Below are positions 10,331-45,762 of a DNA stretch of 64,000 nt, in pieces. The notes under the pieces were generated by a model. It searched no databases and was not told the origin of the DNA. It saw only the letters and a program-made list of their open reading frames with translations. How positions within the stretch are numbered: position 1 is the stretch's first letter; each line of letters opens with the position of its first letter. A program made the translations under genes and the position numbers. Location: the NCBI RefSeq assembly GCF_055900595.2, contig NZ_CM148325.1; one strand, written 5' to 3'.

Positions 10331-11050
10331 AAATGCGCCTGTAAGGCTCTGTTACCAGCCGCGCCCTAACAGGCGCATACGATCTGACATTTGCATTCAA
10401 CTTCGTTACTTACGGCCCGTAAACGGGCTGCCCGGATATGGAATCGATAACTGCTCCCCCATTTTATCCTCTTCAAGCTGGTGCTTTATGTAGTCCTGTA
10501 TCTTCGCCGTGTTCTTACCCACCGTATCGACATAGTACCCTCGGCACCAGAACTCCCTGTTTCTGTATTTGAATTTCAAATCCCCAAACTGCTCGTAAAG
10601 CATCAGACTGCTTTTCCCTTTCAGATATCCCATAAAGCCGGATACGCTCATTTTGGGTGGGATTTCCACAAGCATATGGATATGATCTGCGCAGCACTCT
10701 GCTTCCAGAATCCGTACGCTTTTCCACTCACACAGCTTTCTCAAAATACTGCCTATCGCCCTACGCTTCTCTCCGTAAAACGCCAGTCTTCGGTATTTCG
10801 GCGCAAAAACTATGTGATATTTACAGTTCCAGCGGGTGTGCGCTAAGCTCTTTTCGTCCCCCATTGGGACCCCCTTTTGATTTCTTGTTTGACACTTGCA
10901 GTTGCCAGACCGCAAGGTGTTTTAACAAATCAAAAGGGGTTTTAATAACTGGCTCAAAGCTGAAAGCTTTCCGGAACCCCCAGCCTAGCTGGGGGTTTTC
11001 TGTGCACAAAAAAAGGGCGATTGAATGATCGCCCTTTCTGTTTGTTGACA
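10330..11050 (-). mobile_element. IS200-like insertion sequence (IS200/IS605 family); ends approximate
   Basis: Contains a Y1 transposase gene (HTRWNCKYHIVFAPKYRR motif) flanked by hairpins: cccccagc-cta-gctggggg at about 10978-10998 and a stem followed by a T-run on the minus strand at about 11012-11045. Size (about 0.7 kb) is consistent with IS200. Exact ends not determinable by eye. Confidence 0.75.
10406..10864 (-). CDS. tnpA: IS200/IS605-family Y1 (HUH) transposase TnpA
   Basis: ORF 10406-10915; start placed at MGDEKSLAHTRWNCKYHIVFAPKYRR (152 aa). Contains the HxH motif (ADHIHMLVEIPP) and a C-terminal region typical of IS200 TnpA. Confidence 0.9.
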   Translation of the reverse strand: MGDEKSLAHTRWNCKYHIVFAPKYRRLAFYGEKRRAIGSILRKLCEWKSVRILEAECCADHIHMLVEIPPKMSVSGFMGYLKGKSSLMLYEQFGDLKFKYRNREFWCRGYYVDTVGKNTAKIQDYIKHQLEEDKMGEQLSIPYPGSPFTGRK

Positions 11051-11078
11051 AAGAGTTCGTTATTTATGCCGCATCCGG

Positions 11079-11221
11079 CAGGTGTAGGATCCAAACGCGG
11101 TCGAACACAGCAACTATTTGCGTAATTATATGAGGCATTTGCGACAAAAACTGGAACAGGATCACGTCCGCCCCGCCATTTCATTACTGAAACCGGTATT
11201 GGGTATCGGTTTATGCTTTGA
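11079..11221 (+). repeat. Decayed direct duplicate of the kdpE 3' end (kdpE-remnant pseudo-sequence)
   Basis: 143 bp that align by eye with kdpE 5940-6083 (caggtgt...aaccggtattgggtatcggtttatgc...tga). The copy has TGG to TAG and a 1-nt deletion, so it is non-coding. Confidence 0.8.
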
Positions 11222-11344
11222 AAAAAGTGGCAATGTATGGATAAAGTCATTTTTTATTCAAATATAAGGAACTTAATATTTAAAAAATGTCCCATACAAT
11301 GCCTCATCATAAATGACACCGTAGCACACAAGGAGCAAGTAGCG

Positions 11345-12584: not shown

Positions 12585-12690
12585 GGATGCGGCGTGAACG
12601 CCTTATCCGTCCTACAAAATAGTGCAAATTCAATATATTGCACCATCCTCGTAGGCCTGATGAACGTAGCGTATCAGGCTATCATAAGTA
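12585..12690. repeat. REP/BIME palindromic elements
   Basis: gccggatgcggcgtgaacgccttatcc... and ...gtaggcctgatgaacgtagcgtatcaggc REP-type units between ybfP and pgm. Confidence 0.7.
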
Positions 12691-28399: not shown

Positions 28400-28515
28400 G
28401 ACAAACGCCAAACTGCCTGATGCGCTACGCTTATCAGGCCTACGCAGCTCCTGCAATATATTGAATTTTCATGCTTTTGTAGGCAGGATAAGGCGTTCAC
28501 GCCGCATCCGGCATG
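28400..28515. repeat. REP/BIME elements
   Basis: gcctgatgcgctacgcttatcaggcctac ... gtaggcaggataaggcgttcacgccgcatccggc between nagD and asnB. Confidence 0.8.
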
Positions 28516-31235: not shown

Positions 31236-31312
31236 GGCTACGTAGCTCAGTTGGTTAGAGCACATCACTCATAATGATGGGGTCACAGGTTCGAATCCCG
31301 TCGTAGCCACCA
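31236..31312 (+). tRNA. metT: tRNA-Met (elongator, anticodon CAU)
   Basis: ggctacgtagctcagttggttagagcacatcactCATaatgatggggtcacaggttcgaatcccgtcgtagccacca; cloverleaf and CCA end present. Confidence 0.95.
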
Positions 31313-31322
31313 TCTTTTTTTT

Positions 31323-31407
31323 GCGGGAGTGGCGAAATTGGTAGACGCACCAGATTTAGGTTCTGGCGCCGCAAGGTGTGCGAGTTCAAGTCTCGCCTCC
31401 CGCACCA
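31323..31407 (+). tRNA. leuW: tRNA-Leu (anticodon UAG)
   Basis: gcgggagtggcgaaattggtagacgcaccagattTAGgttctgg... long variable arm ...tcgcctcccgcacca. Confidence 0.93.
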
Positions 31408-31430
31408 TTCACCAGAAAGCGTTGTACGGA

Positions 31431-31505
31431 TGGGGTATCGCCAAGCGGTAAGGCACCGGTTTTTGATACCGGCATTCCCTGGTTCGAATCCAGGTACCCC
31501 AGCCA
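31431..31505 (+). tRNA. glnU: tRNA-Gln (anticodon UUG)
   Basis: tggggtatcgccaagcggtaaggcaccggtttTTGataccgg...ccccagcca. Confidence 0.93.
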
Positions 31506-31539
31506 TCTTCTTCGAGTAAGCGGTTCACCGCCCGGTTAT

Positions 31540-31614
31540 TGGGGTATCGCCAAGCGGTAAGGCACCGGTTTTTGATACCGGCATTCCCTGGTTCGAATCC
31601 AGGTACCCCAGCCA
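31540..31614 (+). tRNA. glnW: tRNA-Gln (anticodon UUG), second copy
   Basis: Identical 75-nt sequence to 31431-31505. Confidence 0.93.
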
Positions 31615-31629
31615 TCGAAGAAACAATCT

Positions 31630-31706
31630 GGCTACGTAGCTCAGTTGGTTAGAGCACATCACTCATAATGATGGGGTCACAGGTTCGAATCCCGTCGTAG
31701 CCACCA
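31630..31706 (+). tRNA. metU: tRNA-Met (elongator, anticodon CAU), second copy
   Basis: Identical to the metT sequence. Confidence 0.93.
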
Positions 31707-31754
31707 AATTCTGAATGTGTCGAATACGTTCGGCAAATTCACAAACCAATTTGT

Positions 31755-31829
31755 TGGGGTATCGCCAAGCGGTAAGGCACCGGATTCTGATTCCGGCATT
31801 CCGAGGTTCGAATCCTCGTACCCCAGCCA
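31755..31829 (+). tRNA. glnV: tRNA-Gln (anticodon CUG)
   Basis: tggggtatcgccaagcggtaaggcaccggattCTGattccgg...ccccagcca. Confidence 0.93.
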
Positions 31830-31866
31830 ATTTATTCAAGACGCTTACCTTGTAAGTGCACCCAGT

Positions 31867-31941
31867 TGGGGTATCGCCAAGCGGTAAGGCACCGGATTCT
31901 GATTCCGGCATTCCGAGGTTCGAATCCTCGTACCCCAGCCA
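31867..31941 (+). tRNA. glnX: tRNA-Gln (anticodon CUG), second copy
   Basis: Identical to the glnV sequence. Confidence 0.93.
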
Positions 31942-39158: not shown

Positions 39159-41096
39159 TTACGGTTCAGGGATACAAGCCACATCGCCATATTGGGGATG
39201 CCGAATAATTGCCTGCGGATCAAGCGAGCGCGTCCTGTCCATTTGGATTAACCCGTTCTTCGCCATAACAAATATCTTTCTACCATCCGCTGAAAAACGA
39301 AGATGATTAACGTAGCTGGCAGGATAAACGCCAATAATCTGCCCGGCATTAATATTGAGCAGGATGACATAACCTTGCAGGCCATATGACACCAACGCTA
39401 AATACTGACCGTCCGGGCTAATACCCTCAACAGAATAAACGCTCCTGCTACACCATTGCGTCATAATGCTGGCTTGTTGATCCCCTGTGCTTATACCTGA
39501 AATCCCCTGACTATCGGCAAAAATAACCTCACCATTTTTTGGTCGGAATCCCATCGCAGAAACGACACCACGCGCATCACCTGCGGGAAAATCTTCTTTC
39601 TGATGCGTGATGGTATTGATCCGCACGATGTTACCTCTGCCTGCTCCCGGAACCAGTAATGTTTTTTCATCCGGGGAAAGTGCCATAACCCAGGCGCCTG
39701 GTTTACCGCTCGTCCCCGTCCCGTCGTATTTCTCCAGTGGGATATCCGCCACATGCTGATAAGTCACCAGATCAATCGCTGACACACTATTACTGGTGCG
39801 ATTCATCACCCAGGCTTTTGTGCCATCACGCGAGAGGATAAGGCTGTCAGGATGGGCGCCGGTGGTAATCGACTGAATAATCTCCCCCGTCGCCACGTTA
39901 ATGACCGATACTGCATTCGCTTCAAATGAAGTCGCATACAGCAACTTTTCATCGGGGCTTAACACCAGCGATCTGACGCCCTGATCTTTACAGCCACCAC
40001 AATGTTTGACTGACTTTTCTTTCGCTATGGGCGCTGTAAAGGTATGCAGGATTTTCTTTTGTCCGAGGTCGAAAACAACAATACTGTTCGTGTTTTCAAT
40101 TGCGGCATAAAACGTATTACCATCCCGACTGATCGCCATATCATGGATATCGGCAATCTCAGCGAGCAAATCACCACTGGCCTGTTCACGACTTACCGGA
40201 GCGGGTAATGTTTCCCTGAGGGCGTTGCGTTCCTCCGCTAACTGCTGCTTTTTATGCCGTCGCTCTTGTTCAATCTCCTGCGGATAAAACTCTTCACGCA
40301 GGCTTTGCCTGACCTGCAAAACTGATTCATCAATCTGCTGCTGCACAAGCCAGATAGCCCCGGTCAGTAGAAGACTACCCGCAACAATAATCCCGCCTTC
40401 CGTAACAAGTCGGTTTTGCCCAGATAAACGCGCACTCAGCCAACCCAACGCGCCCCCCGCAATCAGGCCGCCAATGTGGCAAGCGTTATCTATTCCTGTT
40501 TGCCGGGTACCATACAACAGTGTCAGCGCCACCATACCCAACAGAGAAAATACTCGCCGCTGGTTTTTATGGTGTGTACCCGCACCTGAAGAAAGCTGTG
40601 TTGCTATCGCAGCGCCAGCTATTCCCATAATTGCCCCGGATGCCCCAACGCTGATGACTATCTGCTCACTTTCGCGTAACGCATAACAGGCGCTGATGAG
40701 CCCACCAAAGATGCCGGAGAATAACCAGATAATCAGGAGTCGCCATTTCCCCAGTATCCGTTCCGCCACTGTCCCCACCACCAGGAGTGCAAACATATTC
40801 ATCAGCAAATGGGAAAAACTACTGTGCAGAAAAACACTGCTCAATAAGCGCCAGGGTTCACCCGACAACGTGAGAGAGGCAACGTTAGCGCCGAGATGGA
40901 TGAGTGCGGATTGATCGACTTCTTCATAACTCATCCATTGTGCGAGGTAACAAAATATCCCAACACATAGCGCAAAAAGGATCAGGGTTATTGCGGGTAA
41001 TTGAACATTTAACGGCTTAACCGAAGATGCAGACATAAGGTGATTCTTCCTTGAAAAGACAGGTAAAAAAGCATTTTTCCCGTGTGCAGTTATCAT
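39159..41096 (-). CDS. Rhomboid-family intramembrane serine protease fused to a C-terminal beta-propeller-like repeat domain (uncharacterized)
   Basis: 645-codon ORF. Rhomboid hallmarks read directly: WRLLSSVFLHSSFSHLLMNMF (H-x4-H-x3-N), GASGAIMG (candidate catalytic Ser, ORF residue 153), HIGGLIAG (candidate catalytic His, residue 207). A further hydrophobic helix (GGIIVAGSLLLTGAIWLV) and a charged linker follow. The C-terminal ~340 aa carry reiterated S/T-x-D-G ... N-x-V-S-V-I units. An alternative start at Met21 (41036) is possible. Confidence 0.8.
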   Translation of the reverse strand: MITAHGKNAFLPVFSRKNHLMSASSVKPLNVQLPAITLILFALCVGIFCYLAQWMSYEEVDQSALIHLGANVASLTLSGEPWRLLSSVFLHSSFSHLLMNMFALLVVGTVAERILGKWRLLIIWLFSGIFGGLISACYALRESEQIVISVGASGAIMGIAGAAIATQLSSGAGTHHKNQRRVFSLLGMVALTLLYGTRQTGIDNACHIGGLIAGGALGWLSARLSGQNRLVTEGGIIVAGSLLLTGAIWLVQQQIDESVLQVRQSLREEFYPQEIEQERRHKKQQLAEERNALRETLPAPVSREQASGDLLAEIADIHDMAISRDGNTFYAAIENTNSIVVFDLGQKKILHTFTAPIAKEKSVKHCGGCKDQGVRSLVLSPDEKLLYATSFEANAVSVINVATGEIIQSITTGAHPDSLILSRDGTKAWVMNRTSNSVSAIDLVTYQHVADIPLEKYDGTGTSGKPGAWVMALSPDEKTLLVPGAGRGNIVRINTITHQKEDFPAGDARGVVSAMGFRPKNGEVIFADSQGISGISTGDQQASIMTQWCSRSVYSVEGISPDGQYLALVSYGLQGYVILLNINAGQIIGVYPASYVNHLRFSADGRKIFVMAKNGLIQMDRTRSLDPQAIIRHPQYGDVACIPEP

Positions 41097-41491
41097 CCCG
41101 GCAAACGTCCCATACCGAAAAGTTAACTCTGTCCGAAATATGACTTTTTCAGCCTGAAATTACAATCGTAATTAATTCATCCCTAAGTATTTTTTGGCAT
41201 GTAAGTTGCTTTATTTACTGTGTAAGCAATGAAATCAGCCGCAACGCAACCGGGTTGCACCAACACAAATCAGCGGTAGCACCAAAAAGGTGCGGTTTAA
41301 GAATTTTGCTTCGGAATGGTGCGGCGCATCTCGCAAAAACAAACAATAAAACATCAATATCTTTACATTTAGCCAAACTAAATGTTACCTAACAAACACA
41401 ACACTGCACAATAAAGTTGCAGATGATAACAACACAAACACTCACAACGGGTATCCATGCGTTCTTAACGCAGAAGATAAAGGAGTTGGAT

Positions 41492-42400
41492 ATGCAATTA
41501 CGTAAACCTGCCACAGCAATCCTGGCCCTGGCGCTTTCCGCAGGACTGGCACAGGCAGATGACGCCGCCCCGGCAGCGGGCAGTACGCTGGACAAAATCG
41601 CCAAAAACGGTGTGATTGTCGTCGGTCACCGTGAATCTTCAGTACCTTTCTCTTATTACGACAATCAGCAAAAAGTGGTGGGTTACTCGCAGGATTACTC
41701 CAACGCCATTGTTGAAGCAGTGAAAAAGAAACTCAACAAACCGGACTTGCAGGTGAAACTGATTCCGATCACCTCACAAAACCGTATTCCTCTGCTGCAA
41801 AACGGCACTTTCGATTTTGAATGTGGTTCTACCACCAACAACGTCGAACGCCAAAAACAGGCGGCTTTCTCTGACACTATTTTCGTGGTCGGTACGCGCC
41901 TGCTGACCAAAAAGGGCGGCGATATCAAAGATTTTGCCGACCTGAAAGGCAAAGCCGTAGTCGTTACTTCCGGCACTACCTCTGAAGTTTTGCTCAACAA
42001 ACTGAATGAAGAGCAAAAAATGAATATGCGCATCATCAGCGCCAAAGATCACGGTGACTCTTTCCGCACCCTGGAAAGCGGTCGTGCCGTTGCCTTTATG
42101 ATGGATGACGCTCTGTTAGCCGGTGAGCGAGCGAAAGCGAAGAAACCAGACAACTGGGAAATCGTCGGCAAGCCGCAGTCTCAGGAAGCCTACGGTTGCA
42201 TGTTGCGTAAAGACGATCCGCAGTTCAAAAAGCTGATGGATGACACTATCGCTCAGGTGCAGACCTCCGGTGAAGCGGAAAAATGGTTTGATAAGTGGTT
42301 CAAAAATCCAATTCCGCCGAAAAACCTGAACATGAATTTCGAACTGTCGGACGAAATGAAAGCACTGTTCAAAGAACCGAATGACAAGGCACTGAACTAA
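41492..42400 (+). CDS. gltI: Glutamate/aspartate ABC transporter periplasmic binding protein
   Basis: ORF 41417-42400; start placed at MQLRKPATAILALALSAGLAQA (signal peptide), 302 aa. Confidence 0.93.
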   Translation: MQLRKPATAILALALSAGLAQADDAAPAAGSTLDKIAKNGVIVVGHRESSVPFSYYDNQQKVVGYSQDYSNAIVEAVKKKLNKPDLQVKLIPITSQNRIPLLQNGTFDFECGSTTNNVERQKQAAFSDTIFVVGTRLLTKKGGDIKDFADLKGKAVVVTSGTTSEVLLNKLNEEQKMNMRIISAKDHGDSFRTLESGRAVAFMMDDALLAGERAKAKKPDNWEIVGKPQSQEAYGCMLRKDDPQFKKLMDDTIAQVQTSGEAEKWFDKWFKNPIPPKNLNMNFELSDEMKALFKEPNDKALN

Positions 42401-42556
42401 TTACAAGAACCAGGGGCGGAAATTCCAGCCCTCTCGATTGTTACGTAGCACGGACAGACTATACGCCTGATGGTCGTTCCCCATCGGGCCTGAAAACCGC
42501 AATACGCTGGGTAACAATCTTCGAGGGTAGCAGTTAACGCTGCTACCCTCTTTTTT
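42395..42556 (+). ncRNA. sroC: SroC-like sRNA derived from the gltI-gltJ spacer (3' end at terminator); 5' end approximate
   Basis: The gltI-gltJ intergenic region ends in a strong hairpin gagggtagcag-ttaac-gctgctaccctc followed by tttttt (42523-42556). Position matches the SroC sRNA described for the gltIJKL mRNA in E. coli and Salmonella. Confidence 0.55.
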
Positions 42557-42569
42557 CTGGAGTAGATTT

Positions 42570-43310
42570 ATGTCTATAGACTGGAACTGGGGTATTTTTT
42601 TACAACAAGCCCCGTTCGGCAACACCACCTATCTTGGTTGGATCTGGAGTGGTTTTCAGGTGACGATCGCTTTGTCGATCTGCGCCTGGATTATCGCTTT
42701 CCTTGTCGGTTCATTTTTCGGCATTTTACGTACCGTTCCAAACCGTTTTCTCTCCGGTCTGGGTACGTTGTATGTCGAACTGTTCCGCAACGTGCCGTTG
42801 ATTGTGCAATTCTTTACCTGGTATCTGGTTATCCCTGAACTGTTGCCGGAAAAAATCGGCATGTGGTTTAAGGCAGAACTAGACCCAAATATTCAGTTTT
42901 TCCTCTCCTCCATGCTCTGTCTGGGACTGTTTACTGCAGCTCGTGTTTGCGAACAAGTACGCGCCGCGATTCAGTCGTTGCCGCGTGGGCAAAAGAATGC
43001 CGCGCTGGCAATGGGTCTGACGCTACCGCAGGCTTACCGCTACGTACTGTTGCCTAACGCTTATCGCGTTATCGTCCCGCCAATGACCTCTGAGATGATG
43101 AACCTGGTAAAAAACTCCGCCATCGCCTCGACCATCGGTCTGGTGGATATGGCGGCGCAGGCCGGTAAATTGCTCGATTACTCGGCCCACGCCTGGGAGT
43201 CATTTACCGCCATTACGCTGGCGTATGTGTTGATTAACGCTTTTATCATGCTGGTGATGACGCTGGTTGAACGTAAAGTTCGCCTGCCCGGCAACATGGG
43301 GGGCAAATAA
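42570..43310 (+). CDS. gltJ: Glutamate/aspartate ABC transporter permease
   Basis: 246-aa polytopic ORF with the ABC permease EAA-like region. Confidence 0.93.
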
Positions 43311-43983
43311 TGTACGAGTTTGACTGGAGTTCCATTGTTCCTTCCCTGCCATATCTGCTCGACGGGCTGGTGATCACCCTGAAAATCACCATCACGGCGG
43401 TGGTCATTGGTATTTTGTGGGGTACGATGCTGGCAGTAATGCGCTTGTCCAGCTTTGCGCCGATTGCCTGGTTTGCCAAAGCCTACGTTAACGTATTCCG
43501 CTCGATTCCTTTAGTCATGGTTTTGCTGTGGTTTTACCTGATTGTGCCGGGTTTTCTGCAAAACGTGCTGGGATTATCGCCAAAAAATGATATCCGTTTA
43601 ATTTCGGCGATGGTGGCGTTTTCGATGTTTGAAGCGGCCTACTATTCAGAGATTATCCGTGCCGGTATTCAAAGTATTTCCCGTGGGCAGTCGAGCGCCG
43701 CGCTGGCGTTGGGGATGACTCACTGGCAGTCGATGAAACTGATTATTCTGCCGCAGGCGTTCCGCGCTATGGTGCCGCTGCTGCTCACTCAGGGCATCGT
43801 ACTGTTCCAGGATACCTCACTGGTGTATGTGTTATCTCTGGCCGATTTCTTCCGTACCGCCTCAACCATTGGTGAGCGTGATGGTACACAGGTCGAAATG
43901 ATTCTGTTTGCCGGGTTTGTTTATTTCGTTATTAGCCTTAGCGCATCGTTGTTGGTCAGCTACTTGAAAAGAAGGACAGCATA

Positions 43984-43984
<1 letters not shown>
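43310..43984 (+). CDS. gltK: Glutamate/aspartate ABC transporter permease
   Basis: 224-aa polytopic ORF; start overlaps the gltJ stop. Confidence 0.93.
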
Positions 43985-44709
<725 letters not shown>

Positions 44710-44826
44710 TCACTCTGGCGCGCATACCCAAGTGCGCGCCATCTCACGCTTTCTCGTTTCGGCCCTCGTATCTGTTACATCCTGGCGTTACCCTTGTCGC
44801 AAAGAAGCACACAACAAGGAGCAACA

Positions 44827-45762
44827 ATGGCACTGCCAATTCTGTTAGATTGCGATCCAGGTCATGACGACGCTATCGCAATAGTTCTCGCCCTCGCCTC
44901 ACCAGAGCTTGATGTCAAAGCAATTACGTCTTCCGCCGGAAACCAGACACCAGAAAAAACCTTACGCAATGTTCTGCGTATGCTGACCTTGCTTAATCGC
45001 ACCGATATTCCGGTAGCAGGCGGCGCGGTAAAACCATTAATGCGTGATTTGATTATCGCGGACAATGTGCACGGCGAAAGCGGTCTCGACGGCCCTGCAT
45101 TACCGGAACCGACGTTCGCACCGCAAAACTGTACGGCGGTGGAGTTGATGGCGAAAACGCTGCGTGAAAGTGCGGAACCTGTCACGATTGTTTCTACCGG
45201 ACCGCAAACTAACGTTGCCTTGCTGCTCAATAGCCACCCGGAACTGCATAGCAAAATCGCCCGAATCGTGATTATGGGCGGCGCAATGGGGATTGGTAAC
45301 TGGACGCCAGCCGCCGAGTTTAATATTTATGTTGACCCGGAAGCGGCAGAAATTGTCTTCCAGTCAGGGATCCCGGTGGTGATGGCCGGTCTGGATGTTA
45401 CTCACAAAGCGCAAATTTACGTTGAGGACACCGAGCGTTTCCGCGCGATTGGCAACCCTGTTTCAACCATTGTTGCCGAACTGCTGGATTTCTTCCTCGA
45501 ATATCATAAAGACGAAAAATGGGGCTTTGTTGGCGCACCGCTGCATGACCCATGCACCATCGCCTGGCTGTTGAAACCAGAGTTGTTTACCACTGTTGAG
45601 CGCTGGGTTGGCGTGGAAACACAAGGGAAATATACCCAGGGTATGACGGTTGTTGATTATTATTATCTGACCGGCAATAAACCGAATGCTACTGTAATGG
45701 TCGATGTTGATCGTCAGGGCTTTGTTGATTTACTGGCTGATCGTCTGAAATTTTACGCTTAA
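44827..45762 (+). CDS. rihA: Pyrimidine-specific ribonucleoside hydrolase RihA
   Basis: ORF 44794-45762; start placed at [19 protein letters not shown] (the DxDxxxDD nucleoside hydrolase motif), 311 aa. Confidence 0.93.

Follow-up and report, generated by a model that had tools for sequence, protein, structure and literature searches.

The window analysed here is a single 64,000-nucleotide stretch of DNA, and its plus strand carries the gltIJKL operon. The first gene, gltI, lies at 41492-42400 (+) and encodes a periplasmic glutamate/aspartate-binding protein of 302 aa, the length of K-12 b0655. Its 3′ end, with the stop codon TAA at 42398-42400, agrees with the K-12 record, and the gene is annotated gltI in a strain identical over 42300-42700. 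After a spacer come gltJ (42570-43310 (+), 246 aa), gltK (43310-43984 (+), 224 aa) and gltL (43984-44709 (+), 241 aa), whose lengths are those of the K-12 b0654-b0652 set and whose stop and start codons overlap at the gltJ/gltK and gltK/gltL junctions. A Shine-Dalgarno sequence, GGAG, precedes gltJ at 42559-42562 (+). In Salmonella, gltIJKL has a single promoter and a leaky terminator (PMC4474525). A simple scan of the plus strand from 40900 to 45000 found no sigma-70-like promoter, a weak negative, and by analogy with Salmonella gltJKL would be expressed only via read-through of a terminator in the spacer.

The spacer is almost certainly occupied by sroC, a processed, gltI-derived sRNA within the gltIJKL operon. 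An Rfam scan of the 64-kb window placed sroC (RF00369) at 42396-42558 (+), with model positions 1-163 of 163 matched and a score of 174.8 bits (gathering score, 45; E = 7.4e-37). K-12 MG1655 is 100% identical to the window over the 201 nt from 42380 to 42580 and annotates the identical stretch as the 163-nt ncRNA sroC (b4763; NC_000913.3 686681-686843), which the curated record places between gltI and gltJ and lists as sharing the last 5 nt of gltI. The layout here is that of K-12: the RNA lies between gltI and gltJ, on their coding strand, its 5′ end falls in the last gltI codons (overlapping ACTAA, stop codon included), and its 3′ end lies just past the T-tract of the terminator. The first-pass annotation had proposed an SroC-type locus, to be checked by a search for an Rfam SroC match. 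The full-length match was found, and with the base-for-base identity to b4763 it establishes that claim; the interval then given, 42395-42556, is off by 1-2 nt at each end. Nothing we found contradicts the identification.

The window copy shows no difference from E. coli K-12 SroC, being alike in sequence, position, terminator, GcvB sites and fold. Because the sequence is identical to a known K-12 gene, the locus is not novel; it is an already-known gene, well studied in E. coli, and nothing new. SroC is a textbook mRNA-derived sponge through which a single operon for amino-acid transport is connected with the GcvB regulon as a whole. The surrounding sequence (42300-42700) is present at ≥95% identity in 5421 of the 5426 complete E. 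coli genomes. PGAP-annotated RefSeq E. coli genomes (e.g. NZ_CP082355.1) list gltI and gltJ without sroC despite the K-12-identical sequence, and among the records compared sroC is annotated only in the curated K-12 entry.

At the distal end of the spacer, GAGGGTAGCAG (42523-42533) and CTGCTACCCTC (42540-42550) are perfect inverted repeats of 11 bp, with T6 directly behind them at 42551-42556. RNA folding allows a twelfth pair, the G·U pair T42534·G42539, which leaves a 4-nt loop. We thus describe a Rho-independent terminator at 42523-42556 (+), with a stem of 42523-42534/42539-42550, a TAAC loop and the T6 run. Folded alone, the hairpin has an energy of -21.3 kcal/mol. When both strands of the window were scanned, this was the sole perfect stem of at least 11 bp with a T-run, and 30 block shuffles of the window yielded none; these data argue against a chance origin of the hairpin. 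The perfect 11-bp stem plus T6 had been reported in the first-pass annotation and is indeed there, ahead of the gltJ ATG as described; the distance to that codon, put at about 15 nt, is in fact 13 nt from the end of the T-run. The terminator is predicted from its sequence to be the 3′ end both of SroC and of a monocistronic gltI mRNA, termination being as published (PMC4474525).

To examine conservation, we scanned genome contigs with the pattern AGCACGGACNNACTATA and obtained 97 loci. True enterobacterial homologues (70-100% identity) make up 58 of them; about 39 are chance matches in unrelated phyla, which were dropped after blastn. Our alignment joins 55 homologues to the window and has 56 sequences, drawn from about 20 genera. 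Since the search pattern includes the first GcvB site, genomes in which this site is unaltered are over-represented. gltJ follows sroC directly in 54 of the 56 sequences.

The 163-nt RNA has a minimum free energy (MFE) of -66.3 kcal/mol (z = -6.5 versus 200 dinucleotide shuffles), and its structured body spans 42413-42518 (+), with SL1 at 42413-42432 and a long SL2 at 42436-42518 according to the MFE fold and covariation. Projected onto the alignment, the E. coli MFE structure leaves 88.3% of cells paired; sliding the partners by 1-3 columns lowers this to 37-54%. Because the window sequence itself supplied the structure, the paired-cell measure is somewhat inflated. Compensatory changes occur at 16 pairs, and the observed covariation score was reached in 0 of 500 shuffles. 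In the upper SL2 stem, which presents the GcvB loop, six of nine pairs show compensatory changes, with 97% pairing. The conserved fold (SL1, long SL2 and terminator) is therefore borne out across the 56 sequences. RNAalifold, run on the alignment with its flanks, returned a consensus that was odd in part: it joined GACA and UGUC in a spurious long-range helix reaching the gltJ start. The projected MFE structure was preferred.

The same alignment bears on a minus-strand ORF of 75 aa at 42401-42628, which appears in the mechanical ORF list and which, if a real gene, would attribute the conservation of the spacer to coding. We give next to no credence to this reading: the ORF overlaps the gltJ start and the whole sRNA, indels across genera are not multiples of three (they include the 8-nt terminator insertion and gaps of 5-7 nt), variation tracks base-pair covariation rather than codon structure, and the public records compared carry no annotation for it.

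Some homologues depart from the usual layout. One Citrobacter braakii, two Phytobacter and one Intestinirhabdus sequence have ~100-125 nt inserted between the gltI stop codon and SL1, upstream of SL1 and displacing the usual SroC processing site; the C. braakii and Phytobacter inserts have a core that we take to resemble the ERIC/IRU repeat. In two Siccibacter sequences, SroC is kept only to about nt 94, the distal stem is absent at the aligned position, and gltJ starts farther downstream. This arrangement recalls the truncated, non-functional SroC of Yersinia (PMC4474525).

Two stretches of SroC are complementary to GcvB, as judged by exact-complement words against the K-12 gcvB sequence. The first, GGACAGAC (SroC nt 57-64; 42452-42459 (+)), lies in an internal bulge and is a perfect 8-nt complement of GcvB 156-163 (R3/SL4). 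The second, UCGUUCC (SroC nt 79-85; 42474-42480 (+)), lies in the SL2 loop and is a perfect 7-nt complement of GcvB 13-19 (SL1). The gap between them is 14 nt, as published: structure probing implicates GcvB G14, G18 and G156 and two SroC sites 14 nt apart (PMC4474525). UCGUUCC is invariant in all 56 sequences, and the SL2 loop, GGTCGTTCCCC, is invariant save for one T>C change in the two Siccibacter sequences; both lie outside the search pattern. The conservation of the first site (42452-42459), which lies inside that pattern, is partly by construction. A SroC-GcvB complementary word of at least 8 nt arose in 32% of 2000 shuffles and is thus common by chance, so the case for pairing rests on the published probing and mutagenesis together with conservation, not on complementarity alone. 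Full-length RNAduplex runs, of SroC with GcvB and of the 221-nt gltI leader with GcvB, were uninformative, because the method ignores intramolecular structure and everything pairs.

GcvB also has a target at the other end of this transcript. A C/A-rich element in the gltI 5′ leader (41416-41449 (+)) is assigned as the target of the GcvB R1 seed, on the basis of duplex energy and of published work (PMC4474525, which cites Sharma 2007 for the gltI leader as a GcvB target). GcvB nt 63-92 (R1) and the leader element form a duplex of -33.9 kcal/mol, stronger than that of 500 of 500 random 121-nt windows (mean -20.2, best -31.2 kcal/mol). One transcript thus holds both a GcvB target and an anti-GcvB sponge, as published, and both halves of the feed-forward loop are readable in the window.

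Given that a terminator after the first gene, that for the binding protein, is a common design of ABC-transporter operons (PMC4474525), and that GcvB complementarity alone is statistically not unusual, the hairpin could be thought merely a stabiliser or attenuator that sets gltI:gltJKL stoichiometry, leaving an RNA fragment without a function of its own. We consider this extremely improbable. Across genera, the ~125 nt that precede the hairpin show both conservation and structural covariation, and the loop has an invariant sequence, something not required of a simple stabiliser. Moreover, published ΔsroC phenotypes and RIL-seq chimeras demonstrate activity in trans, and the published ΔsroC and compensatory-mutation data already refute the stabiliser-only reading.

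The function of SroC as a sponge is best documented in Salmonella, where most of the mechanistic experiments were done and where the terminator hairpin is shorter than that of E. coli. There, Miyakoshi, Chao and Vogel (EMBO J 2015; PMC4474525) described a leaky terminator that yields a monocistronic gltI mRNA and, from it, SroC. The terminator is Rho-independent, and gltJKL depend on read-through (PMC4474525). SroC is made by 5′-end-dependent, Hfq-assisted RNase E processing, which generates a 5′-monophosphate species of about 160 nt whose mature 5′ end lies 2 nt before the gltI stop codon (PMC4474525). Pairing of SroC with GcvB at the 7-nt and 8-nt sites leads to degradation of GcvB by RNase E, with de-repression of the GcvB regulon, gltI included; the E. 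coli counterparts of both RNAs are equally functional (PMC4474525). Two further proposals of the first-pass annotation agree with this published work: attenuation of gltJKL relative to gltI, known from Salmonella, where the terminator is termed 'leaky', and formation, from the 3′ end of gltI, of a stable GcvB-sponging RNA, likewise known from Salmonella and supported for E. coli by the functional homologues (PMC4474525).

Further reports bear on SroC in E. coli and on its additional targets. Detection of the E. coli SroC species is credited to Vogel 2003 by later papers (PMC9438474, PMC9299463). In stationary-phase E. coli RIL-seq data, 67,138 of 95,686 GcvB chimeric reads fall on sroC, and E. 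coli ΔsroC strains are in routine use (PMC9299463). SroC also sponges MgrR and represses fliE and flhBAE (review PMC9438474). For the E. coli 3′-end mapping study of Adams et al. 2021 (eLife 62438), the main text contains no mention of sroC, gltI or gltJ.

Combining these reports with the features of the window, we propose the following course of events. Transcription from the gltI promoter would either stop at the hairpin and T6 (42523-42556) or read through into gltJKL. Termination would give a monocistronic gltI mRNA, and hence more binding protein than membrane subunits. Degradation of that mRNA by RNase E would halt 2 nt before the gltI stop codon, leaving a stable, Hfq-bound SroC of 163 nt with a 5′ monophosphate. 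SroC would then pair with GcvB via GGACAGAC in the internal bulge and UCGUUCC in the SL2 loop, causing RNase E to degrade GcvB, and loss of GcvB would relieve many mRNAs of amino-acid transport and metabolism, including gltI, whose leader (41416-41449) is the R1 target. What we read from sequence here is the identity to K-12, the covarying fold, the terminator, the leader site and the two sites of pairing with GcvB. The efficiency of termination, processing by RNase E, dependence on Hfq and the decay of GcvB are taken from the cited literature, and we presume that they apply equally to this copy.

In its biogenesis, SroC resembles the type II 3′-UTR-derived Hfq sRNAs CpxQ, SdhX, NarS, MalH and OppZ, which are likewise processed by RNase E, share the parental terminator and depend on Hfq (PMC9438474). 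Unlike these, SroC derives from an operon-internal terminator rather than from the end of an operon, and its primary target is an sRNA (GcvB, and also MgrR) rather than an mRNA. It also resembles the chbBC spacer, which traps ChiX, and 3′ETS-leuZ, which acts on RyhB and RybB: these, too, derive from transcripts and titrate or destabilise an sRNA that depends on Hfq. The decay routes differ, in that SroC triggers RNase E cleavage of GcvB, whereas decay of ChiX on chbBC uses the 3′ terminator region and PNPase (PMC4474525).

The terminator of SroC varies between lineages. Its core, GGGTAG/CTACCC, is kept in 54 of the 56 sequences, the two Siccibacter sequences lacking it at the aligned position. 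The extension that gives a perfect 11-bp stem is found in 12/56, all from Escherichia and the Kluyvera group. Stems of the Kluyvera group range from -20 to -24 kcal/mol, and the E. coli stem is followed by a U6 run; in E. albertii the hairpin is weaker (-16.0 kcal/mol) because of one stem mismatch. In 42 of the 44 remaining sequences the hairpin has 9 pairs and an energy between -12.8 and -16.1 kcal/mol (typically -13.7); it is usually followed by U8, and two of these sequences spend part of the U-run in the stem. Salmonella is a case in point, with a 9-pair stem of -13.7 kcal/mol and a free U-run of 8, compared to 12 pairs, -22.7 kcal/mol and U6 in E. coli. An 8-nt insertion and a T>C change set the E. 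coli terminator apart from that of Salmonella and account for both its longer stem (12 pairs instead of 9) and its shorter free U-run (6 instead of 8). Hence the long stem, which had been presented as typical SroC architecture, is present here, and as a family norm it fails, being limited to Escherichia and Kluyvera. It is a lineage-specific reinforcement of a conserved, weaker terminator. This lineage restriction of the long 11-12 bp stem is a small extra result beyond published work.

Conserved nucleotides elsewhere in SroC raise the question of a second, cis-acting role, in which the SroC body would adjust read-through into gltJKL, either as a regulated antiterminator or in the manner of a riboswitch. 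Outside the GcvB sites, the blocks CCCTCTCGATTG and AATCTTCGAGGGTAG are near-invariant, and the nascent CUCGA (nt 38-42; 42433-42437) is predicted to pair with UCGAG (nt 125-129; 42520-42524) at the foot of the terminator; conserved non-GcvB nucleotides and regulated termination were also raised by the authors of the Salmonella study (PMC4474525). However, of the terminator stem only the lowest 2-3 bp are shared with the CUCGA/UCGAG helix, and in six of the six genera tested the terminator fold is the more stable by 10-16 kcal/mol. There is no covariation in favour of the alternative helix, because both blocks are invariant, and the window scan matched no Rfam riboswitch family. We consider such a switch unlikely and retain the sponge as the function of SroC. 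A related proposal strikes us as improbable: lengthening of the stem in Escherichia and Kluyvera may measurably shift the balance between termination and read-through, and the SroC-GcvB circuit would then be of different strength in E. coli and in Salmonella, possibly together with the conserved non-GcvB blocks acting as a cis modulator of termination. If so, the termination side of this balance would bear on gltI mRNA and SroC, and the read-through side on the expression of gltJKL.

Several other features of the window came to light during this work. Between lnt and the gltI promoter region, at 39159-41096 (-), lies a gene whose 645-aa product combines a rhomboid intramembrane protease with a beta-propeller in one fusion protein. 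A 2.4-kb query spanning this gene was matched over at least 80% of its length in 3231 of 5426 E. coli genomes; in strain VCSW5 the gene is absent at this position, and lnt directly precedes gltI. K-12 presumably has an IS5 copy upstream of gltI. Farther away, Rfam STnc490 scored 146 bits at 10874-10997 (-), at the end of an IS200/IS605-family element with an annotated tnpA. A query with its context (10600-11300) had 16-18 matching places in matching strains, and the 701-nt stretch is contiguous in only 11 of 5426 E. coli genomes, indicating that insertion of the IS200/IS605 element at this site is rare. Rfam ES036 gave two matches just above the gathering score, at 12616-12658 (+) and 28436-28478 (-). 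Both fall within intergenic palindromic repeats (…GGCGTGAACGCCTTATCC…GTAGGCCTGAT…) that resemble REP/BIME elements rather than dedicated sRNA genes. Finally, the Rfam tRNA model identified seven clustered tRNA genes at 31236-31938 (+), whose position relative to miaB and ubiF fits what we take to be the E. coli metT-leuW-glnUW-metU-glnVX operon.
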